Sequence record: PQ604604
DNA from: Escherichia phage ECP_WGS_SA1
Strand: one strand, 5' to 3'
Length of the DNA: 64,000 nt
Part shown: piece after piece, positions 5,667 to 56,795 of the stretch
Numbering within the stretch: position 1 is the first letter of the stretch
Layout of the letters: each line of letters begins with the position of its first letter
The notes under the pieces: generated by a model
The model's input: the letters and a program-made list of their open reading frames with translations, nothing else
Database searches by the model: none
What the model was told of the DNA's origin: nothing
Position numbers and translations under genes: made by a program

Positions 5667-7070
5667 NNNAGCGCCTTGAGTGAATTATTTNGCTGCNTTC
5701 AGCGCGACTATNTCTGNNNNNNNNNNNNNNNNNNNNNNNNNNNNNNNNNNNNNNNNNNNNNNNNNNNNNNNNNNNNNNNNNNNNNNNNNNNNNNNNNNNN
5801 NNNNNNNNNNNNNNNNNNNNNNNNNNNNNNNNNNNNNNNNNNNNNNNNNNNNNNNNNNNNNNNNNNNNNNNNNNNNNNNNNNNNNNNNNNNNNNNNNNNN
5901 NNNNNNNNNNNNNNNNNNNNNNNNNNNNNNNNNNNNNNNNNNNNNNNNNNNNNNNNNNNNNNNNNNNNNNNNNNNNNNNNNNNNNNNNNNNNNNNNNNNN
6001 NNNNNNNNNNNNNNNNNNNNNNNNNNNNNNNNNNNNNNNNNNNNNNNNNNNNNNNNNNNNNNNNNNNNNNNNNNNNNNNNNNNNNNNNNNNNNNNNNNNN
6101 NNNNNNNNNNNNNNNNNNNNNNNNNNNNNNNNNNNNNNNNNNNNNNNNNNNNNNNNNNNNNNNNNNNNNNNNNNNNNNNNNNNNNNNNNNNNNNNNNNNN
6201 NNNNNNNNNNNNNNNNNNNNNNNNNNNNNNNNNNNNNNNNNNNNNNNNNNNNNNNNNNNNNNNNNNNNNNNNNNNNNNNNNNNNNNNNNNNNNNNNNNNN
6301 NNNNNNNNNNNNNNNNNNNNNNNNNNNNNNNNNNNNNNNNNNNNNNNNNNNNNNNNNNNNNNNNNNNNNNNNNNNNNNNNNNNNNNNNNNNNNNNNNNNN
6401 NNNNNNNNNNNNNNNNNNNNNNNNNNNNNNNNNNNNNNNNNNNNNNNNNNNNNNNNNNNNNNNNNNNNNNNNNNNNNNNNNNNNNNNNNNNNNNNNNNNN
6501 NNNNNNNNNNNNNNNNNNNNNNNNNNNNNNNNNNNNNNNNNNNNNNNNNNNNNNNNNNNNNNNNNNNNNNNNNNNNNNNNNNNNNNNNNNNNNNNNNNNN
6601 NNNNNNNNNNNNNNNNNNNNNNNNNNNNNNNNNNNNNNNNNNNNNNNNNNNNNNNNNNNNNNNNNNNNNNNNNNNNNNNNNNNNNNNNNNNNNNNNNNNN
6701 NNNNNNNNNNNNNNNNNNNNNNNNNNNNNNNNNNNNNNNNNNNNNNNNNNNNNNNNNNNNNNNNNNNNNNNNNNNNNNNNNNNNNNNNNNNNNNNNNNNN
6801 NNNNNNNNNNNNNNNNNNNNNNNNNNNNNNNNNNNNNNNNNNNNNNNNNNNNNNNNNNNNNNNNNNNNNNNNNNNNNNNNNNNNNNNNNNNNNNNNNNNN
6901 NNNNNNNNNNNNNNNNNNNNNNNNNNNNNNNNNNNNNNNNNNNNNNNNNNNNNNNNNNNNNNNNNNNNNNNNNNNNNNNNNNNNNNNNNNNNNNNNNNNN
7001 NNNNNNNNNNNNNNNNNNNNNNNNNNNNNNNNNNNNNNNNNNNNNNNNNNNNNNNNNNNNNNNNNNNNNN
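5667..7070. other. Almost fully masked block of N; adjacent N-runs at 5322-5605, 7194-7307 and 7354-7611
   Basis: Read directly. Confidence 0.99.
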
Positions 7071-8009
7071 NAGCAATTGTCCGTCTGCAACGACTTCATA
7101 CGGTTGAATATATGCACGACTGTCACGNAAGTGAAAATCACCAACNCCATAGTTCATNACACCGTTCATGCTTGGGCCAACGGTGCCTGTGTTNNNNNNN
7201 NNNNNNNNNNNNNNNNNNNNNNNNNNNNNNNNNNNNNNNNNNNNNNNNNNNNNNNNNNNNNNNNNNNNNNNNNNNNNNNNNNNNNNNNNNNNNNNNNNNN
7301 NNNNNNNTGATCCTGTGCCNCCCATGGAAGTTGGGACGATGCTTTGATCAGCNNNNNNNNNNNNNNNNNNNNNNNNNNNNNNNNNNNNNNNNNNNNNNNN
7401 NNNNNNNNNNNNNNNNNNNNNNNNNNNNNNNNNNNNNNNNNNNNNNNNNNNNNNNNNNNNNNNNNNNNNNNNNNNNNNNNNNNNNNNNNNNNNNNNNNNN
7501 NNNNNNNNNNNNNNNNNNNNNNNNNNNNNNNNNNNNNNNNNNNNNNNNNNNNNNNNNNNNNNNNNNNNNNNNNNNNNNNNNNNNNNNNNNNNNNNNNNNN
7601 NNNNNNNNNNNGATGCACCAGCATTTGCTGATTGATGATATTGACCAAACCATGAACCAGTCAAGGCATTGAGATTTATTCCGTTAGGAATCTCTCCAAA
7701 GTTTCGGACAGTACCCGTCAAAGTTGCGGCAGTGGTTCGAATAGAAAGCATGTCGCCAGCCGCCCATGCACGCGCTGCAGTTCCTTCCTGTGCACGCTGC
7801 ACGGTCAGGACGTTTCCAACAACGGCTGTTACTGTGACGATTTCGAATTGGAGGCCTGTTGCGGCGTCAACGATTGTCGCCACTACACGCTCGTTTGCGC
7901 CCAAGGTCGGAAAGCCCGACCCTGAGCGAATTGTGATTGTGGTGTCTGAAGTCGTCGTTGGCTGAGCGAGCGCGACCTCAAAGTTGTTTTTGAATATTAG
8001 CCTTGGCAT
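5685..8009 (-). CDS. Putative tail fibre or receptor-binding-like protein; largely masked by N, 3' end uncertain
   Basis: Long ORF with GAGGA upstream of the ATG at 8009; readable N-terminal 130 aa is rich in T/S/G/V as in phage fibre N-termini. Confidence 0.4.
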   Translation of the reverse strand: MPRLIFKNNFEVALAQPTTTSDTTITIRSGSGFPTLGANERVVATIVDAATGLQFEIVTVTAVVGNVLTVQRAQEGTAARAWAAGDMLSIRTTAATLTGTVRNFGEIPNGINLNALTGSWFGQYHQSANAGAXXXXXXXXXXXXXXXXXXXXXXXXXXXXXXXXXXXXXXXXXXXXXXXXXXXXXXXXXXXXXXXXXXXXXXXXXXXXXXXXXXXXXXXADQSIVPTSMXGTGSXXXXXXXXXXXXXXXXXXXXXXXXXXXXXXXXXXXXXXNTGTVGPSMNGXMNYXVGDFHXRDSRAYIQPYEVVADGQLXXXXXXXXXXXXXXXXXXXXXXXXXXXXXXXXXXXXXXXXXXXXXXXXXXXXXXXXXXXXXXXXXXXXXXXXXXXXXXXXXXXXXXXXXXXXXXXXXXXXXXXXXXXXXXXXXXXXXXXXXXXXXXXXXXXXXXXXXXXXXXXXXXXXXXXXXXXXXXXXXXXXXXXXXXXXXXXXXXXXXXXXXXXXXXXXXXXXXXXXXXXXXXXXXXXXXXXXXXXXXXXXXXXXXXXXXXXXXXXXXXXXXXXXXXXXXXXXXXXXXXXXXXXXXXXXXXXXXXXXXXXXXXXXXXXXXXXXXXXXXXXXXXXXXXXXXXXXXXXXXXXXXXXXXXXXXXXXXXXXXXXXXXXXXXXXXXXXXXXXXXXXXXXXXXXXXXXXXXXXXXXXXXXXXXXXXXXXXXXXXXXXXXXXXXXXXXXXXXXXXXXXXXXXXXXXXXXXXXXXXXXXXXXXXXXXXXIVALXAXK

Positions 8010-44425: not shown

Positions 44426-44847
44426 GACAATTCCTCTAAATACTTGATGATGTGATGNNNNNNNNNNNNNNNNNNNNNNNNNNNNNNNNNNNNNNNNNNN
44501 NNNNNNNNNNNNNNNNNNNNNNNNNNNNNNNNNNNNNNNNNNNNNNNNNNNNNNNNNNNNNNNNNNNNNNNNNNNNNNNNNNNNNNNNNNNNNNNNNNNN
44601 NNNNNNNNNNNNNNNNNTGACCTTTCTCAAATGCGCTCTTGAAAGGAAGAGTGGTGGCCCTTGCAGGCCACGATTCAAAGAACTTCATTTCAAGCCAAAA
44701 GCCGCGCCCTTTCCGGTTGGTGCCGATTACGTCCGGCACACCATCACCCGTCATTGATTCGATTCTTTGAAGCTTCAAGATTGATTCTGAATGCTTCTTC
44801 AAAGGCACGAATATGTATTTCTGTTCACGGTTATTTGTTGCCATCTG
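44422..44847 (-). CDS. Putative VRR-NUC nuclease; C-terminal part masked by N (44458-44617)
   Basis: GVPDVIGTNRKGRGFWLEMKF resembles the VRR-NUC core. Confidence 0.4.
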   Translation of the reverse strand, partial: QMATNNREQKYIFVPLKKHSESILKLQRIESMTGDGVPDVIGTNRKGRGFWLEMKFFESWPARATTLPFKSAFEKGXXXXXXXXXXXXXXXXXXXXXXXXXXXXXXXXXXXXXXXXXXXXXXXXXXXXXXHHIIKYLEELS

Positions 44848-49715: not shown

Positions 49716-50588
49716 CTATTTATTGAAATTAATATTGTGGGTGTTGACGAGACGTTCACACATGGCGCTGTAAACACCATCGTCGTGTATAGAGTCTTCG
49801 TGCTTCAGGCCGCTGATTGCAAAGCGTGTAAGCTTGACAATCTTAAGCTCGAACAGATGCCACATGTGGTAGTCTTCCGGCGTTTTCAACGTTACGCCAT
49901 TAGGGAAAAGCACCTGCATAACCTGGCCAACCATCACGGCATTATCGCCATAGACAGCGTTGCGCTCACGGAAGGTTGCTGCCATTGCATCAAGAATATC
50001 GGCGGCAGTTGCCGGAGATTGTTCAACTTCCACAGCCTTAGTCTCTTCTTGCCCCGTTGCGCTTGGATCAATTGCTAATTGTTGCACCACTTCACCTGCC
50101 TTGCAAAGATTAAACGTAAAAGCGATTTTATTTTGCGCAACGGAATTATAATACAAGGCTTCATCTTGCATCCGCGCGAGTACGTCTTGTCGGTCGTCGA
50201 ATACATTGATGATTCTATAATCGCCGTGCCGCAATGCGTGCGATAGCCATGCAGATTTCATAATAGTTGATGGACGTTTGTCGCCATAGTCTCTCATCTT
50301 GATTGTAAATTCATCAAAAGGAAAAACATTGTCCAGACGTTCAAAAGTCACTTGTCTGTATTTTTCTGGCCTTGCAGTCCAATATTCAACCGCCTCACCG
50401 CGAAGAGATGCCGACTCTACTGCTGATGCAATGTGAGGATAGAACTGATCATAACCAATACCGCTGTGATAGTCATCATAGTCTGACAACGGACCTGCCA
50501 CCTTGATGCGGTCTAAACGCCAACGGTCATCAAACAGCGTTCCGTCAAGGTCGAATACGTTTAAGATTTCGCTGTTTTTAATGCTCAT
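49716..50588 (-). CDS. HAD-superfamily phosphatase domain fused to an uncharacterised C-terminal domain
   Basis: HAD motif I FDLDGTLFDD at the N-terminus; C-terminal 140 aa unassigned. Confidence 0.5.
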   Translation of the reverse strand: MSIKNSEILNVFDLDGTLFDDRWRLDRIKVAGPLSDYDDYHSGIGYDQFYPHIASAVESASLRGEAVEYWTARPEKYRQVTFERLDNVFPFDEFTIKMRDYGDKRPSTIMKSAWLSHALRHGDYRIINVFDDRQDVLARMQDEALYYNSVAQNKIAFTFNLCKAGEVVQQLAIDPSATGQEETKAVEVEQSPATAADILDAMAATFRERNAVYGDNAVMVGQVMQVLFPNGVTLKTPEDYHMWHLFELKIVKLTRFAISGLKHEDSIHDDGVYSAMCERLVNTHNINFNK

Positions 50589-51388
50589 CCTTTTGATACT
50601 CCATCTTTAGCAACTGGATTGTTGGTGATTGGCATCGCATTCCAAAACTGGATGCGCAACTCTTCTTGCTGTGCCGTGGTATCCATCCAATCACGATACC
50701 ACGGGCAATGGGCTTTACCGTGACGAGGAAACGCGCACTTACCCATACCGATGCATTGCGGCTGCAGTAATGGATTCGCCCACGGGTGCACCTTGAGGAC
50801 TTCCGCAACCATTGCGCGGAACACTTCTTGATACTCTCCTTGTGTGCGCGTGCACAAGCGGTTGGAAGCCATCTGTTGCAGCGTGCGCAAGTTGAACTTT
50901 GCCATGATATGCGTTTGCATATTAGAAGGCAACACGGCACGTGCATCTTGAATCTCTGCGCCAGCCGCGCGAAGCTCTTGATACAAAGCATCGATAGTCG
51001 CCATCGCATCGTCCCANNNNNNNNNNNNNNNNNNNNNNNNNNNNNNNNNNNNNNNNNNNNNNNNNNNNNNNNNNNNNNNNNNNNNNNNNNNNNNNGGACG
51101 AATCGCATCAAACGCAGATGATTCCTGAGCGCGGCTTGTGCGTTCTTGATATGCGCCTGTGCGTGTGCGTACCATCTGATGCGTCATGTTCTTTGATACA
51201 TCTGTGATGTCAAATATATAGTCCACAAAGTCAAAAGGCGACTTGATTGTATCAAGCATGTAGCGCCAATGCTCTTGCTTCTCTGATTCCGTCATCTCAG
51301 AGACAGGCTTACCAGTCATGCGCGTGTTCTTTGTTTCCAGCAAAAGGTCAAGTGCATCTTGGGTGTATCGAATTAATTCAACTTTCAT
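50585..51388 (-). CDS. Flavin-dependent thymidylate synthase (ThyX)-like protein with a non-canonical signature; internal N-run
   Basis: Segments ARAVLPSN..T and C-terminal CPW align with ThyX; signature position reads RTR where RHR is expected. Confidence 0.55.
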   Translation of the reverse strand: MKVELIRYTQDALDLLLETKNTRMTGKPVSEMTESEKQEHWRYMLDTIKSPFDFVDYIFDITDVSKNMTHQMVRTRTGAYQERTSRAQESSAFDAIRXXXXXXXXXXXXXXXXXXXXXXXXXXXWDDAMATIDALYQELRAAGAEIQDARAVLPSNMQTHIMAKFNLRTLQQMASNRLCTRTQGEYQEVFRAMVAEVLKVHPWANPLLQPQCIGMGKCAFPRHGKAHCPWYRDWMDTTAQQEELRIQFWNAMPITNNPVAKDGVSKG

Positions 51389-51401
51389 TTTAATTATCCT
51401 A

Positions 51402-51848
51402 TTAACGGTAATTCACTAGTTGCTGATCACCAGAGAAGGTGCAATGATAAACGAATTGTGCGTTATAAAGCAACTGAAAACTTTTCTTTGGTTCATTATT
51501 AGAACTCATTGATGTAAAGATTTCTGCACCAGAACGGTTTTCACCAATCAGATTGATAAAGCCGCCAGTTGAACGAGGCTGGACGAAAGTGAAACGTTGC
51601 ACCCACGGAGTACGGTTGGCACCTTTCCCTGTGAATCCCTGAATCTGAATATTCAGACCTTCTTGCTCGTTAACACCGATGTAAGTGGTAATCTTTGCAC
51701 CAGTCGTTGCTGCGGTCTTACCGTCCATCGCTTCGCAATCGTAAACAGCGATTGAATCGGAAGTACGGATGGCAGCTTCAGTCGCTTCCATATACATGGT
51801 GCCGAGAATAGCAGTCGCGGCAAGAGCGATTCCAGTGATTCGTTTCAT
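51402..51848 (-). CDS. Secreted protein, 148 aa
   Basis: Signal-peptide-like N-terminus MKRITGIALAATAILG. Confidence 0.45.
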   Translation of the reverse strand: MKRITGIALAATAILGTMYMEATEAAIRTSDSIAVYDCEAMDGKTAATTGAKITTYIGVNEQEGLNIQIQGFTGKGANRTPWVQRFTFVQPRSTGGFINLIGENRSGAEIFTSMSSNNEPKKSFQLLYNAQFVYHCTFSGDQQLVNYR

Positions 51849-51913
51849 TTTCGTTTCCTCTATGAGTTCTGCTTCAATGATTAAAGTATACGCCCATTGA
51901 AGAAGAAAGCAAA

Positions 51914-52909
51914 TTATTTATTAGCAATATAAGCAAATTTTTGATAGTTATTTGCTTTGATGAGTTTTTCAACTTCAACAAGGTCATGAGCGACGTCATC
52001 AAGCAAAATGTTGCGCCAGGTAGCAAATCGACCGACACTGAACACGTTCAAATCCATAGTCAGCTGCAGGAGTAGGGCGTGTCGCAAGTCTTTCGGAATG
52101 TCGACAATCTTGCCATATTTCTGGTCGACCTTTTCAACTTCTTCAAGAGCGATGTCACTCCATGAAAGGCCAAATGCAGTCAACACTTCGTCGACTTCTG
52201 CGCGAAGCTTCATGTCACGGTAACGAGTGATGCCGCCGGCAGCTTCAACTGCAGCTTCACTTACGCTGACTAAAGGAATTGTTTCAATGATAAGCGTGTC
52301 ACCAGTAATTGATGCGCGGTAAGTTCTGACGGAGTAGTCAGGGAAGTAAATTGTCTGATACAAATCACACTTACGTTTAATCTTAAAGCGGTAAACGCGA
52401 ATGTTTGCTTTATCAAATGAGAAATCAAGCTTTTGATCAATCCCAGCCAGCTTCATCATGACTGGCAGCGGCGACGTATTGATGATTGGTGTCTCGCTAT
52501 AGCCACAAAGAGTATCAACCGGAGTATTAAAGAATATGCGGTCACCCAGTTTGTCGACAAGCTGATCATAAAAGTCATCAGGCGCAATATAACGCGTTGC
52601 AGCCTTAAGCTTCATGATTGAACGGCTACCAAACTGATTGGTGACCTTCATGGAATACATATTGGCAAGGTTAATTGGGCAATGGTCGTGGTAGTAGTTG
52701 CCGCGAAAATACACAGCCTTGTCAACTGTCACGGCCTTAAAGGGGATTCCGGTAATACGGCTTACTTCTTCGCCACGGAAGCGTAGCAACGCCTTGTGCT
52801 GTTGCACCCGTTCCCCTGCTTCGTACACAATAGAGTTCGGGAAGTGACACGCTGTGATAAGTCCTGCTAATCCGCCGCCGATAATCATTACAGGTTGTTT
52901 CATGTTCAT
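51914..52909 (-). CDS. FAD/NAD(P)-binding oxidoreductase
   Basis: N-terminal dinucleotide-binding motif VMIIGGGLAGL; AAAGGA RBS. Confidence 0.5.
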   Translation of the reverse strand: MNMKQPVMIIGGGLAGLITACHFPNSIVYEAGERVQQHKALLRFRGEEVSRITGIPFKAVTVDKAVYFRGNYYHDHCPINLANMYSMKVTNQFGSRSIMKLKAATRYIAPDDFYDQLVDKLGDRIFFNTPVDTLCGYSETPIINTSPLPVMMKLAGIDQKLDFSFDKANIRVYRFKIKRKCDLYQTIYFPDYSVRTYRASITGDTLIIETIPLVSVSEAAVEAAGGITRYRDMKLRAEVDEVLTAFGLSWSDIALEEVEKVDQKYGKIVDIPKDLRHALLLQLTMDLNVFSVGRFATWRNILLDDVAHDLVEVEKLIKANNYQKFAYIANK

Positions 52910-53042
52910 TTGTCCTTTGTGGGTGATATGAGAAGTATAATAGCTAAATTATTTTACAGCAACAAGTCATTTTATTTAGTACAGATGAAAAAAAGACCCA
53001 CAACAAGTGTGGGTCAATTACCGCTGCATAACCGTCCTAAGG

Positions 53043-53888
53043 TTATTCCGCTTGATCACCGTCTTCGGCATCTTCGTTGGATTCAACATCGACAAACTCG
53101 ATGTGACCCATCTCTTCCAGCTTGCTCAGGTAGGAGCGAACGGAAGCGCCAAACAGTTGATCTTTAACTTTTTCGCCCAGCTCATCGATAGACTGCGCCA
53201 CGCCAACTTCGCCTTCTTTGATCGCCGCCAGAACGCGTCCACGGGTGGAATGCTCTTGCGGCTGGCTCAGGCCATTGCCAGTGTAGATGAAGTGGGTTGC
53301 TTTTGCACGACGCTGACCGTTCGCCTTTTTAGCAGCCTTACGTTCTGCGATGGCTTTGCGACGTTCTTCAGCTTCTTTCTTACGCTGTTCTTTCTGCTTT
53401 TCTGCAGCTTCTTTAGCCGCAATCTTAGCAGCTTCACGCTCTGCCTTGCGTTTCGCTTTAGCTTCTTCTTTAGCCTTCTCTTTTTCGGCCTTCGCTGCAG
53501 CACGGGCCTGATCACGCTCTGCTTTCTTAGCAGCAGCTTGTTCAGCTTTCAGGCGCTTGGCTTCTTCTTTAGCCTTTGCCTTTTCGATTTCTTTTGCTGC
53601 TTTAGCGGCTTCACGCTCTGCTTTCTTAGCAGCGGCCTTTTCTGCACGCTCTTTAGCTTTCTTAGCTGCTTCTTCAGCACGCTTCTGAGCCTTCTCATCA
53701 GCAGCCTGCTTGCGTTTCAGCGCAGCTTCTTCACGCTTGGCTTGTTTTTCCTGCTCACGCTTCTGGCGTTTTTCTTCGGCTTCTTTCTTTTTAGCCAGAC
53801 GTTTTTCTTCAGCCACGCGACGACGTTCTGCTGCAGCTGCTTGTTTTTCTTCTTTAGATAATACTTTGATTGCTTCGGCCATGTTCAC
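53043..53888 (-). CDS. Highly charged K/E/A-rich protein (predicted long single alpha-helix) with a small C-terminal domain
   Basis: About 200 aa of alternating K/R and E with A; periodic AAGAAGC repeats in the DNA. Confidence 0.55.
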   Translation of the reverse strand: MNMAEAIKVLSKEEKQAAAAERRRVAEEKRLAKKKEAEEKRQKREQEKQAKREEAALKRKQAADEKAQKRAEEAAKKAKERAEKAAAKKAEREAAKAAKEIEKAKAKEEAKRLKAEQAAAKKAERDQARAAAKAEKEKAKEEAKAKRKAEREAAKIAAKEAAEKQKEQRKKEAEERRKAIAERKAAKKANGQRRAKATHFIYTGNGLSQPQEHSTRGRVLAAIKEGEVGVAQSIDELGEKVKDQLFGASVRSYLSKLEEMGHIEFVDVESNEDAEDGDQAE

Positions 53889-54041
53889 AGTCCTTAAATA
53901 AATTAGTTTATTTTATATTCCCCGTTTGGGATAACTTAATTATGCCTTCAGTCGCCGCCAGTAGCAACTAAAAACTCTGGCGGCAATGCCACTTTAATTA
54001 AACTGATTTTCAGTTTTATTTTTCGTAAATTTACGTCAACA

Positions 54042-55226
54042 TTAACGCGCTTTCAAATCACGGTACACGGTCAGATTCTTCTTAGCGCGGGTAATAGCGG
54101 TGTACATCATCTTGGCATACGGAACGCCGCGTAAGATTTCTTCCAGCACGCACACATTGTCCCACTCGCTGCCTTGCGATTTGTGCACCGTTATGACATA
54201 GCCATAGTCCATGCCTCCAACAGCGCGTTGGGCCTCTTTGCGCACTTCCTGATCAGTAGAGAAGGAAAGAGGATTTATCTTCACCTTTATATCTTTGCCA
54301 TCGGTAAGCGAGCGCAAATTGACATACATTATTTCATTGGATTCATCTTCATCCCTTTCAAAGTCCGGCACGGGCTCATAACTAATAACAATCCCTTGCT
54401 CGCCATTACAGAATCCTGGACCGTGTTGGTTGAATGTGCAAATAACTTTCTCGCCGATTCCTGGCATTGGCGTTATACGTCCGCTCACTTGCCGCAATAA
54501 TGAATTCCATTTATCTTTGGTGCTATTATATGAACAAATAATTTGATCATCTTCGCCCATAAATTTCTTCAGTGCGGTAACGCGCGGCGATTCAGCCAGA
54601 ACCTTTACGTCATCGTATTCACGCGGAGGAAGTCGGTTTCCCTGTCGAACGAAGAAGGAAGCGCGGATTATGTTGGACTCTTTCCCCTGCCGCATGATTT
54701 CGGTTAACAGCACGTCAACGGCATCTTCAGTAAAGTAGGCGGCGGCCTTTACCGGAGGAACTTGTCCAATGTCGCCTAATGCCAGCACAGGGATGCGGTG
54801 ATCAAGAAGGCGCTCTGTGTCCCACTCGCCGACCATTGAAGCTTCATCAAGAACTACAAGATGCGGTTTTTCGTCCAGCTTTGACTTTCTCGAAAATATT
54901 GGCTCATTGTCGTCATTTACGCCGCGCACATTATAGATGAACTGGTGAAGGGTCTTAGCGCCACGACATCCTTTTTGCTTCAATCGGCTGGCGGCCTTTC
55001 CGGTCGGCGCAATATAAATGGCGCCGTACTCACCGACACAACGGCGCACAATCTCACGCGCAATAGAGGTTTTACCTGTTCCTGCATAGCCAGCGATGAA
55101 AAACACGCGCTTCGTCGTTTTACCGTCCTGCAATCGCTTGTACCATGCAACGGCCTTTTCGATGGCGTCAATCTGTTGCGCGTTGAACTGAATCGCTGGC
55201 TCATTATTAAATTCTGGAATGTTCAT
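54042..55226 (-). CDS. Dda/RecD-like superfamily 1 DNA helicase
   Basis: Walker A GYAGTGKT; Walker B VVLDEASM; C-terminal YTAITRAK. Confidence 0.8.
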   Translation of the reverse strand: MNIPEFNNEPAIQFNAQQIDAIEKAVAWYKRLQDGKTTKRVFFIAGYAGTGKTSIAREIVRRCVGEYGAIYIAPTGKAASRLKQKGCRGAKTLHQFIYNVRGVNDDNEPIFSRKSKLDEKPHLVVLDEASMVGEWDTERLLDHRIPVLALGDIGQVPPVKAAAYFTEDAVDVLLTEIMRQGKESNIIRASFFVRQGNRLPPREYDDVKVLAESPRVTALKKFMGEDDQIICSYNSTKDKWNSLLRQVSGRITPMPGIGEKVICTFNQHGPGFCNGEQGIVISYEPVPDFERDEDESNEIMYVNLRSLTDGKDIKVKINPLSFSTDQEVRKEAQRAVGGMDYGYVITVHKSQGSEWDNVCVLEEILRGVPYAKMMYTAITRAKKNLTVYRDLKAR

Positions 55227-55552
55227 TATAACTCCACTACGCTTTCAAGGTCCAGATATACTGGAATAAAATGGCAATCTTCTTTTCGTTCAAACATCTC
55301 ACCGTCAACTTGGCTGAAGAAAACAGTCGTGTTTGGTATCTTCCACCCTTGCTCGTCGCGCACCAGGTACGCCATGGATTCAACAGGGATGTAAAGCGAT
55401 ACCGGATTTGCGGCAAAGATGAATTTGATTCTGTCTGGTTGACCCAGGAATCGCATAATTGTAAGACTTGAATTCAGCCTTGTATTAAGGAAGGACTCAA
55501 CGATGCCGACGTGTGTTGCACGTTCGCGTTGCTTCGTATCTTTTTCGTTCAT
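55226..55552 (-). CDS. Hypothetical protein, 108 aa
   Basis: ORF with stop/start overlap to the helicase. Confidence 0.4.
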   Translation of the reverse strand: MNEKDTKQRERATHVGIVESFLNTRLNSSLTIMRFLGQPDRIKFIFAANPVSLYIPVESMAYLVRDEQGWKIPNTTVFFSQVDGEMFERKEDCHFIPVYLDLESVVEL

Positions 55553-55655
55553 TTCAGGCGACCTTTGTTAGTGCGGAAATATTTTCTGATAGTATAATTG
55601 CAGATATAGTATAAAGCAAAGTAAATCGAAATTGTGAACTAAATGGTAAATATTG

Positions 55656-55683
55656 TTGACTTTGTATCACTCAATATTATACT
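55656..55683 (+). promoter_or_regulatory. Sigma70-like promoter TTGACT-16 nt-TATACT upstream of the primase gene
   Basis: Hexamers read directly, about 30 nt before the RBS/ATG at 55713. Confidence 0.45.
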
Positions 55684-55712
55684 GCAGGTATTGATCACCG
55701 AAGGAAAGAAAG

Positions 55713-56795
55713 ATGGCTAGTTTAAGAGAAGAAGCAAAAATAATCGAAGAGTTTTTGACGGAACTCCAAAGAGGCATTCCAGAAGATGAACGCGTCATGA
55801 CCGTGTTTGCGCCTGAAGCAACGGTGCAGACCGACGAGCGCGGCAAAAAGATTAACAGCAGCTTCTGGCCTAAGCCTTGGAAGCTTGGCAAGCCGCTGAT
55901 GCAACATCAGAACGGTTACGCCTGCATAAGTTCAATGCGTAAGTCTCCCAACCCAAAGACAGGCGAGATGCGATACTGGCGCACGGAATCGGCCTTTGGT
56001 CATGGCATGGCGATGATGGTCGACGACATCGGTCACGGTAAAGGGTCTAAAGGCGATTTAGATTTGGAGTTCTTTTTCGAGCGTCTGAAGCCAACCGTCA
56101 TCATTGAGACTTCGCCGAACAACCACCAGCTGTGGTATTTCTTTAAAGAACCAATTGACCATCTTATTCAGTTCAAAGCATTCCTTGGGTCTTTCGTAAA
56201 CATGGTACTCAAGAAGGGCGGCGACAATACGATTAAAGACGTGACGCGCGTGGGCCGTGTTCCTGGGTGCATCAATAACAAGCGTGTGACTCACGACGGC
56301 CCTTATAAATATGTCGATGAGAACGGCGACCCGTTCCGCTGCCGACTTGTCCATGCAGACTATTCTTTGCGCTACACAATCGAAGAGATTTGCCAAGCCT
56401 TCGGTTTCCACGTCGTTATGCCGCAAAAGCGTGAAATTCAAATCGACGTTGACGAATACAAATATGACGCTGTTTGGTATAAGATAGCCCAGCAAATCCT
56501 TGCGCGCAATAAGATGGGCGAAGGGTCCGACGGCGATGTTGTTGAAAATATGTCAGGTAAATGCCGCATCATCTGTCCTTGGGGTGAAGAGCACACCAAC
56601 GGCGACCCATACGGCGCTTATTTTCGCGGCCCCATCCCTGGCGCTGAACATGAATTCGTTTTCGGTTGCGCTCACGACTGTCACCGGAAAGGGGAAGGCA
56701 AGAAAGGATGGACCGCTTTTGTTGAAGCAGTAGTCATGCCTTATATTGAGAATCAACTTGATATGATAAATCGTCGCGCAGGTGGCATAAAATAG
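55713..56795 (+). CDS. Archaeo-eukaryotic-type primase-polymerase (PrimPol-like) with a C-terminal Cys/His cluster
   Basis: hhhDhD-type motif MMVDDIGH; sxH-type motif SPNNH; Cys/His cluster near the C-terminus. Confidence 0.5.
   Translation: MASLREEAKIIEEFLTELQRGIPEDERVMTVFAPEATVQTDERGKKINSSFWPKPWKLGKPLMQHQNGYACISSMRKSPNPKTGEMRYWRTESAFGHGMAMMVDDIGHGKGSKGDLDLEFFFERLKPTVIIETSPNNHQLWYFFKEPIDHLIQFKAFLGSFVNMVLKKGGDNTIKDVTRVGRVPGCINNKRVTHDGPYKYVDENGDPFRCRLVHADYSLRYTIEEICQAFGFHVVMPQKREIQIDVDEYKYDAVWYKIAQQILARNKMGEGSDGDVVENMSGKCRIICPWGEEHTNGDPYGAYFRGPIPGAEHEFVFGCAHDCHRKGEGKKGWTAFVEAVVMPYIENQLDMINRRAGGIK

Follow-up and report, generated by a model that had tools for sequence, protein, structure and literature searches.

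In a 64,000-nucleotide stretch of Escherichia phage ECP_WGS_SA1 (sequence record PQ604604; the whole stretch is called the window below), the minus-strand gene at 53043..53882 encodes a protein of 279 residues plus stop (31.1 kDa, pI 9.7) that consists mostly of one long charged alpha-helix and ends in a small domain of predicted winged-helix fold. It is the ortholog of ORF66 of the Pbunavirus phages and belongs to phrog_4765, whose profile it matches over its full length (E 6.6e-84, residues 1-279) and whose gene order is kept around it. Our main new observation is that the lysines and arginines of the helix recur at a period of 11/3 residues, and that selection appears to keep a straight Arg/Lys line of ~27 nm backed by an acidic face. 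The family is already in the databases, uncharacterised and mislabelled; the conserved 11/3 basic stripe joined to a winged helix is a new combination of known designs, and the protein is thus a variant on an existing scheme (DNA-binding-type domain plus helical rod), not a new category. The reading we tentatively favour is that it is an architectural protein of the phage DNA-metabolism module, one that is abundant, binds nucleic acid and has no enzymatic activity.

AlphaFold2, run on the single sequence, predicts an uninterrupted helix over residues 10-192 (pLDDT >90), ~183 of the 279 residues. An earlier note on this DNA, made from the letters alone, had claimed such a helix for about 200 of 281 residues; the single unbroken helix stands, at this smaller extent. 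Residues 1-9 (MAEAIKVLS; 53856..53882, minus strand, as for every feature of the gene given below) lead into an S/T-x-x-E helix N-cap (LSKEE) and form no folded N-terminal domain, and the helix proper is assigned to residues 10-188 (53319..53855), its length of ~27 nm following from 0.15 nm per residue. Residues 13-195 comprise 68 K+R, 38 D+E and 57 Ala with no Pro and a single Gly, giving a net charge of +30, and large hydrophobics (L/I/V/M/F/W/Y) number just 7-11, or ~6% (11/186). Fourier analysis of residue classes gave no 3.5-residue (heptad) signal for Ala or hydrophobics, which makes a classical coiled coil unlikely, and the protein is probably, on the predicted structure, a single long helix and monomeric. 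The secondary-structure and coiled-coil prediction for which the earlier note had called has thus returned a long helix free of any heptad.

The period that does emerge is one of charge. Lys and Arg recur every 3.68 residues in the helix (power 3.9 against a shuffle 95% level of ~1.7), as they do in all eight phage homologs compared (peaks at 3.67-3.70 residues, power 2.2-5.3 against a shuffle 95% level of ~1.6); of 17 testable metagenomic members, 13 show the 3.68 peak at a significant level, and in 25 of 28 IMG/VR loci no K/R peak stands higher. The stripe is phase-coherent over the whole helix, with local phase staying within ~35 degrees in most homologs, and Arg is generally its most tightly phased residue (resultant 0.55-0.84 in most homologs). 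Asp and Glu, accompanied by Gln in most homologs, lie ~180 degrees away, and because the period is 11/3 the stripe runs essentially straight along an undistorted helix. Self-similarity falls at the same intervals: internal direct repeats in the DNA are spaced mostly at or near multiples of 33 nt (33, 99, 198 and 264 nt), self-identity of the protein peaks at lags of 11, 26, 33 and 48 residues (z 2.8-2.9 at 11 and 33), and across the family the peaks stand at 11, 22 and 33 and at 15, 26, 37 and 48 (z up to 9, in XcP1 and Pantoea PA1). The two marks of a hendecad array, a period of ~3.67 and self-similarity at lags of 11n, are both present, and we read the region as 11-residue repeats, with some of 15 residues among them, in a degenerate array. 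Homolog helices span 120-220 residues and, although constant in composition, cannot be aligned between genera; that the K/R pattern is kept where the helix sequence is not conserved argues that selection acts on a long linear array of positive charge. One IMG/VR lineage departs from the pattern, with a 314-aa homolog whose strongest K/R period is 5.67, the only clear exception among full-length members.

These features set the helix apart from designs to which its composition invites comparison. The earlier note had described an alternation of K/R and E with the composition of ER/K single alpha-helices; simple alternation is not what the charges show, as they follow the 11-residue stripe, and the classical ER/K signature is not borne out. 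With the ER/K helices of myosin VI, myosin X and caldesmon, and with designed (EAAAK)n linkers, the helix does share great length, a K/R/E/A composition, few hydrophobics and no heptad. The further hallmark of such helices, Glu paired with Lys or Arg at i+4 or i+3 in blocks of ~7-8 residues, is missing: the 14 pairs of E(i) with K(i+4) are no enrichment (z -0.2), whereas Lys is followed by Glu at i+4 (z +3.3) and by Lys at i+7 (z +3.0) and i+11 (z +3.8), enrichments that reach z +5.7 in homologs. Unlike those linkers, moreover, it sorts its charges to opposite faces at 3.68 residues per turn and does not connect two folded domains. Some homologs carry an extra disordered, Pro/Ala-rich N-terminal extension, but none has a folded domain before the helix, which makes a rigid spacer between two domains, one of several roles listed in the earlier note, unlikely. 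As a control, the N-terminal charged region of E. coli IF2 gave a K/R peak at 7.55 and a power of 0.28 at 3.68.

Likeness to the TolA spacer, proposed in the earlier note and implied by the label 'TolA protein' that several records of the family carry, extends to composition and no further. Domain II of E. coli TolA, our second control, likewise forms a long helix with abundant K, A and E, but its K/R peak lies at 5.32, and at 3.68 its power of 0.35 stays below the shuffle 95% level (1.55). The TolA N-terminal transmembrane anchor is absent, the N-terminus (MAEAIKVLSKEEK) running straight into the charged helix, and the C-terminal domain has no Pfam match to TolA domain III at E up to 10 and is predicted to fold as a winged helix. 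We therefore rejected TolA homology, both for want of a domain match and because TolA domain II lacks the 3.68 periodicity.

The same composition and labels would nonetheless be expected of a membrane- or envelope-associated protein, either TolA-like or with an 11-residue-repeat helix lying on anionic lipid in the style of alpha-synuclein and apolipoproteins, which would tether phage DNA or the replisome to the inner membrane, and an 11/3 periodicity is typical of surface-bound amphipathic helices. We consider this very improbable, and the host-envelope role suggested in the earlier note finds no support: the protein has no transmembrane segment, signal peptide, TolA C-terminal domain or Pfam match, TolA domain II itself does not show the periodicity, and there is no hydrophobic face, the side opposite the K/R stripe being acidic. 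Group 3 LEA proteins, whose repeats are rich in K, E and A, share with apolipoproteins and alpha-synuclein a degenerate hendecad array with ~3.67 residues per turn and straight longitudinal stripes, and in this respect they are close to the helix described here. They differ from a protein that has a winged-helix domain, sits in a phage replication module and carries no apolar stripe that could form a coiled-coil core or face lipid, the residues opposite K/R being D, E and Q; neither LEA_4 nor Apolipoprotein was matched in Pfam.

Behind the helix, the last 84 residues have an ordinary mixed composition and a net charge of -11, and AlphaFold2 places a folded domain there, bearing out the small C-terminal domain of about 80 residues that the earlier note had proposed. 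Three parts can be told apart. Residues 189-197 (GQRRAKATH; 53292..53318) form a basic arm or linker with the motif G-x-R-R-x-[KR]-A-T-H, the columns of which are invariant or nearly so; residues 198-264 (53091..53291) make up the domain itself; and residues 265-279 (DVESNEDAEDGDQAE; 53046..53090) are a disordered tail (pLDDT <50), acidic at 9 of its 15 positions, that varies from 5 to ~50 residues among homologs. Modelled on a six-sequence alignment, the domain core reaches a pLDDT of ~90 with the order beta, H1, beta, H2, H3, beta. This model contains the H1-beta-H2-H3-beta topology with confidence and draws structural matches to winged-helix domains, from which we conclude that the domain has, as predicted, a winged-helix fold outside any described sequence family.

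Searches for relatives of the domain returned little beyond that fold. It matched no curated winged helix-turn-helix (wHTH) family in Pfam or NCBIfam, and in PADLOC its sole match was a weak one to the wHTH part of Csa3 (E 0.009). Foldseek found nothing below E 0.19 in the PDB, the globular domain of yeast H1 being among the weak matches, and only family members in BFVD; sequence searches of the PDB with the single sequence and with a 32-sequence profile gave nothing significant, and we judged the best match, an HU-like 'DNA-binding protein' (E 0.05), to be spurious. The conservation within the domain is more informative. Its third or 'recognition' helix (residues 248-257, VRSYLSKLEE; 53112..53141) is the most conserved segment of the family, and together with the wing (S-V-R-S-Y-L-S-K-L-E-E-M-G-H-I) it follows the usual pattern of a wHTH recognition helix, with an R and a K on the predicted exposed face of H3 conserved in at least 97% of sequences. 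Among basic residues, conservation of at least 88% extends from these two to both arginines of the arm's RR and to the arginine in an S-x-R-G motif where H1 begins. Taken with the basic arm, the conserved H3 residues are suggestive of DNA contact through helix 3 and the wing; these positions would fit a DNA-contacting surface, whereas the overall charge of the domain does not argue for one.

Several known architectures join a small domain of this kind to a charged rod. KfrA of IncP plasmids, TlpA and archaeal Sso10a are non-enzymatic proteins of replicon maintenance or chromatin that combine a small DNA-binding-type domain with a long Ala-rich charged helical rod. The present protein differs in its reversed order (helix first, winged helix last), in having no heptad or Ala seam, and in its acidic tail; no homology to KfrA, TlpA or Sso10a was detected, nor any Pfam match to KfrA_N. 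Linker histones H1 and H5 likewise pair a winged-helix globular domain with a long Lys/Ala-rich extension, one thought to form basic-faced helices on DNA, but here the extension is N-terminal, ~22% acidic and predicted to be helical on its own, and with no Pfam match to Linker_histone (PF00538) at E up to 10 the likeness is that of a generic winged helix. An analogy in role is offered by SPO1 TF1, phi29 p6, T7 gp2.5 and T4 gp32, which are abundant, non-enzymatic proteins of phage DNA modules, with an acidic C-terminal tail in the case of T7 gp2.5 and T4 gp32; TF1 is HU-like and prefers hydroxymethyluracil-containing DNA, and modified thymidine is probable in the present phage group too. Their folds are unrelated to that of the present protein, and the analogy is functional only.

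The two-faced helix could also act on other copies of itself. In such a self-assembling scaffold the basic stripe of one molecule would pack on the acidic face or tail of another to build dimers, sheets, filaments or a condensate, clustering the winged-helix domains in the manner of KfrA, TlpA or Sso10a and thereby organising phage DNA or replication sites. All homologs keep basic and acidic residues on opposite faces, ~180 degrees apart, the hendecad periodicity holds those faces straight, as the packing of straight helices needs, and a basic helix alongside an acidic domain and tail permits head-to-tail contacts. A packing seam, on the other hand, is hard to find, large hydrophobics making up ~6% of the helix and Ala being weakly phased or unphased across homologs (resultant 0.05 in this protein), and the AlphaFold2 model is already confident as a monomer. 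We regard self-assembly as distinctly unlikely.

The region around the gene (52000-56000) shares 97.9% identity with Escherichia phage FEC19 and 94-98% with further Wifcevirus myophages (ECML-117, WFH/WFC, Ro157lw and BASEL phages Bas98-100), a group with genomes of 66-72 kb that are distant kin of the Pseudomonas Pbunavirus (PB1-like) phages (PMC11990801). Homologs reach well beyond it. The earlier note had suggested a search with the C-terminal 80 residues alone; a tblastn search with the last 95 recovered the domain at 42-59% identity in 356 phage records. Of these, 293 are Pseudomonas phages (Pbunavirus ORF66), the remainder including phages of Serratia and Pantoea, Burkholderia phage BcepF1, Xanthomonas phage XcP1 and Vibrio phage JSF39. 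An exhaustive profile (HMM) search of 1.84 billion cluster representatives yielded 38 clusters only, every one unannotated and with the domain at its C-terminal end; word-indexed protein searches retrieved family fragments only, low-complexity full-length proteins being apparently poorly indexed. The family appears, on this sampling of sequences, to be confined to phages. No member has a Pfam, NCBIfam or functional PHROG assignment, and phrog_4765 is listed as of 'unknown function'.

Full-length homologs share five elements, namely an N-cap segment, the K/R/E/A helix, a linker, the ~70-residue domain and an acidic tail, with N-caps such as LSKEE, ESKEE, LTAEQ and LTKEQ at the start of the helix and an N-terminal region whose net charge is positive in almost every member. 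At 107-148 aa, the short members consist of a strongly basic helix and the winged-helix domain (pI 9.7-10.9). In the most remote, metagenomic members the K/E/A helix is replaced by another N-terminal region (consensus ...TYNALTGK..KF......RV..A.M.A...) that weakly matches phrog_4730, itself listed without a function; as these members keep the domain without the K/E/A helix, the winged-helix domain and its basic arm form the mobile core of the family.

Together, these observations lead us to favour an architectural role in which the winged-helix domain and the invariant basic arm (RR-x-K-A-T-H) would anchor the protein on DNA while the ~27-nm helix, equivalent to ~80 bp, presented its straight Arg/Lys stripe along the DNA or bridged DNA segments. 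The acidic, Ala- and Gln-containing face and the acidic tail would then point outward, where they might keep molecules from aggregating, regulate binding by folding back, or attract partners, by analogy with the acidic tails of T7 gp2.5 and T4 gp32. The genes around it make the phage's own DNA during replication, possibly bearing hypermodified thymidine, the probable substrate. Conservation of the stripe, the basic residues of H3 and the arm, the basic short members, the expression signals and mass spectrometric detection described below all count towards this reading, as do two plain observations on gene content: the gene is a core gene directly after that for a Dda-like helicase, inside the replication and nucleotide-modification module, and the annotation of the complete genome of Wifcevirus phage Bas100 lists neither a single-stranded DNA-binding protein (SSB) nor any other DNA-coating protein. 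That genome likewise has no annotated histone-like protein, transcription factor or small terminase, and PHROG scans of six of its unassigned proteins, five from the replication region, turned up none of these; the missing SSB, transcription factor and small terminase probably lie among its many hypothetical proteins.

Several points weigh against an architectural role on DNA. That DNA is the ligand is inferred, and so are the binding geometry, the high abundance of the protein and what its acidic face and tail do. The winged-helix core is neutral to acidic (family mean -0.9; pI 5.5 here), and the helix of most homologs carries a modest positive charge (+5 to +15 over 150-190 residues), with acidic residues covering an entire face. 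The DNA backbone winds while the stripe is straight, so that a single duplex could be contacted by only part of the basic residues. Many winged-helix domains, moreover, bind proteins. A possible, if doubtful, alternative is accordingly a protein-protein adaptor of the replisome or DNA-modification machinery that does not bind DNA, its winged helix and tail engaging a phage or host protein (the Dda-like helicase, the polymerase or a modification enzyme being suggested partners) and its helix serving as a projecting arm or entropic spacer. Such an adaptor would leave unexplained the conserved, phase-coherent Arg/Lys stripe along the whole helix; a spacer would have no second folded domain to separate from the first, and the N-terminal helix stays very basic in the short members.

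The row of carboxylates along one side of the helix, together with the acidic tail, could conversely imitate DNA and inhibit restriction enzymes or other nucleases, and Wifcevirus phages do resist restriction-modification systems (PMC11990801). That the protein is a DNA mimic or anti-defence factor is nevertheless scarcely credible to us. It is net basic as a whole (pI 9.7) and in its helix in nearly all members, its gene belongs to the syntenic core of several genera, whereas anti-defence genes are typically accessory, it has no significant PADLOC match (the weak Csa3 wHTH similarity apart), and restriction resistance is better explained by DNA hypermodification (10.1101/2025.03.31.646159). 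Of the nucleic-acid roles listed in the earlier note, mimicry is thus unlikely and binding is the one we favour, with DNA as its presumed ligand.

The gene itself is real and expressed. The open reading frame (ORF) differs from that of Bas100 at 17 nucleotides. Read in the minus frame, 16 of these fall on third codon positions, and the codon changes, 15 synonymous against 2 non-synonymous, show purifying selection. The overlapping plus-strand ORF of 284 aa, rich in F, L, S and C (53007..53861), shows 2 synonymous against 15 non-synonymous changes in the same comparison; we rejected it as a gene, and it is the compositional shadow that the earlier note took it to be. The note had held that its reading would fall if the ORF were unexpressed or the opposite strand carried the true gene, and the substitution pattern and detection by mass spectrometry exclude both. 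Its choice of start codon does need amending. The in-frame GTG (53886..53888) is probably not the start, as the ATG at 53882, used by all annotated relatives including Bas100, lies 8 nt from the Shine-Dalgarno sequence AAGGA (53895..53891, read from the sequence), against 2 nt for the GTG.

Signals around the gene are consistent with strong expression. The 153-nt gap that separates it from the helicase gene contains a candidate sigma-70-like promoter (TTGCTA-17-CATAAT, 53939..53967; 9/12 matches in a consensus scan), and a terminator scan found a strong predicted rho-independent terminator (GACCCACAC-TTGTT-GTGGGTC plus a T run, 52988..53015) that begins 28 nt past the stop codon. A hairpin and T run within ~100 nt of the stop recur in 23 of 24 diverse homologous loci, a count that comes without a background rate, and a terminator after the gene is annotated in the KTN6, LBL3 and XcP1 records. 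Codon bias exceeds that of the neighbouring genes, with Arg encoded exclusively by CGT/CGC and 45% of Ala by GCT. High expression would fit the codon bias, the promoter-like site and the conserved terminator alike.

Detection of the product comes from CsCl-banded particles of Wifcevirus phage vB_Eco4M-7, in which the ortholog ('TolA protein', 31.1 kDa) was identified by mass spectrometry from 7 peptides with 25.8% coverage and a score of 1197.6, and it was seen in ECML-117 too (PMC7048862). Only ~30% of the target sequence yields tryptic peptides of at least 7 residues, and nearly all of the observable sequence was therefore seen in vB_Eco4M-7. The same preparations contained high-scoring unknowns of 31.2 and 20.7 kDa, a 20.8-kDa 'glyoxalase family' protein, a reductase and a helicase (PMC7048862, Tables 1 and 2). 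The masses of the two unknowns agree with those of the phrog_2402 and phrog_2378 proteins. Replication-module proteins in CsCl preparations either co-purified with DNA or debris or represent an unusual packaged set; their presence in the sample also tells against leaning on the detection for an architectural role, since it means that mass spectrometry shows expression and not location.

These data bear most directly on a further alternative, that the protein is internal to the virion, bound to the genome in the capsid and delivered with it, for example to shield or organise incoming DNA. Besides its high score in purified particles of the two Wifcevirus phages, the protein does not appear in the proteome of DNA-free 'ghosts' of Pbunavirus SCUT-S1 (PMC6521218), and the LBL3 record gives ORF66 as 'putative structural protein', the same label as true structural genes. 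We consider packaging distinctly improbable: the helicase, reductase and other replication-module proteins in the same samples suggest carry-over of abundant non-virion proteins, the gene lies in the replication module and not in the structural module, and its product is not among the 19 gene products in the E217 virion structure (PMC10329688). The protein goes unmentioned in that cryo-EM paper and in the papers on JG024, KTN6 and KPP12. The 'structural protein' label, which we traced to the LBL3 entry ('putative structural protein; putative cell wall associated hydrolase'), was set aside because no backing for it was found; the hydrolase part looks like a low-complexity BLAST artefact. A bolder form of the architectural reading, which we think unlikely, would make the protein a phage 'chromatin' component of new design, its winged helix an anchor and its two-faced 27-nm hendecad helix a coat over ~80 bp of hypermodified DNA with the acidic face outward, that organises or shields replicating and possibly also packaged and injected DNA. 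A coat of this kind would explain co-purification with DNA-filled virions but not with DNA-free ghosts.

The neighbouring genes supply the context for these readings, and the position that the earlier note had given, between a redox cluster and a Dda-like helicase, is correct. Upstream lies the Dda-like SF1 helicase gene (54042-55226; Pfam AAA_30, 1e-22, and UvrD_C_2), and downstream follow genes for a 331-aa Rossmann-motif protein (phrog_4828), ThyX, a PNK-like protein and a FabG-like reductase. This cluster (49716-52909 and further left, minus strand) keeps the same gene order in Pbunavirus, and across 14-1, KTN6, XcP1, MyoSmar and ~28 IMG/VR loci the order of a divergent RepB-like primase, Dda-like helicase, target gene, phrog_4828, ThyX and PNK-like protein is nearly universal. 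The phrog_4828 protein has an N-terminal GGGLAG (GxGxxG) Rossmann motif and gave no match in Pfam, NCBIfam or the PDB. A 2025 preprint reports a hypermodified, sugar-like thymidine in Pbunavirus DNA (10.1101/2025.03.31.646159). The ThyX/PNK/FabG/Rossmann cluster adjoining the gene is an obvious candidate and may be the thymidine-modification pathway, and Wifcevirus DNA, whose bearers withstand restriction-modification systems (PMC11990801), may be hypermodified too.

The gene is part of the conserved core of Wifcevirus, of related genera and of Pbunavirus, which is among the Pseudomonas phage groups most used in therapy, and the labels 'TolA protein' and 'structural protein' on the family are misleading. 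A DNA-coating or architectural function, if true, would fill a gap in a replication module with no annotated SSB or histone-like protein and would tie in with the recent report of hypermodified thymidine. Whatever the function, the protein provides a natural, evolutionarily kept helix of ~180 residues with oppositely charged faces and 11/3 periodicity, unlike the textbook ER/K helix, which is of interest to helix biophysics and to the design of linkers and scaffolds.

Further observations concern the surrounding DNA. A divergent intergenic region of 160 nt (55553-55712) separates the leftward helicase and replication operon from the rightward gene for the RepB-like primase (PF16793, E 1.9e-36) and is a plausible control or origin region; a quick repeat scan saw no iterons in it, and near the target gene no convincing iterons or operators were found, the repeats there lying within the coding repeat array. 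Within the DNA-metabolism module, a minus-strand ORF of 148 aa (51402-51848) opens with a sequence resembling a signal peptide (MKRITGIALAATAILGTMYMEA), although export would be odd for a product encoded there; searches of Pfam, PHROGs and NCBIfam matched nothing. Finally, the window contains 32 runs of N amounting to 3144 bases (for example 5717-7071, 44458-44617 and 51017-51095), one of which breaks the ThyX gene and leaves X residues in its translation, whereas the gene described here is untouched by them.

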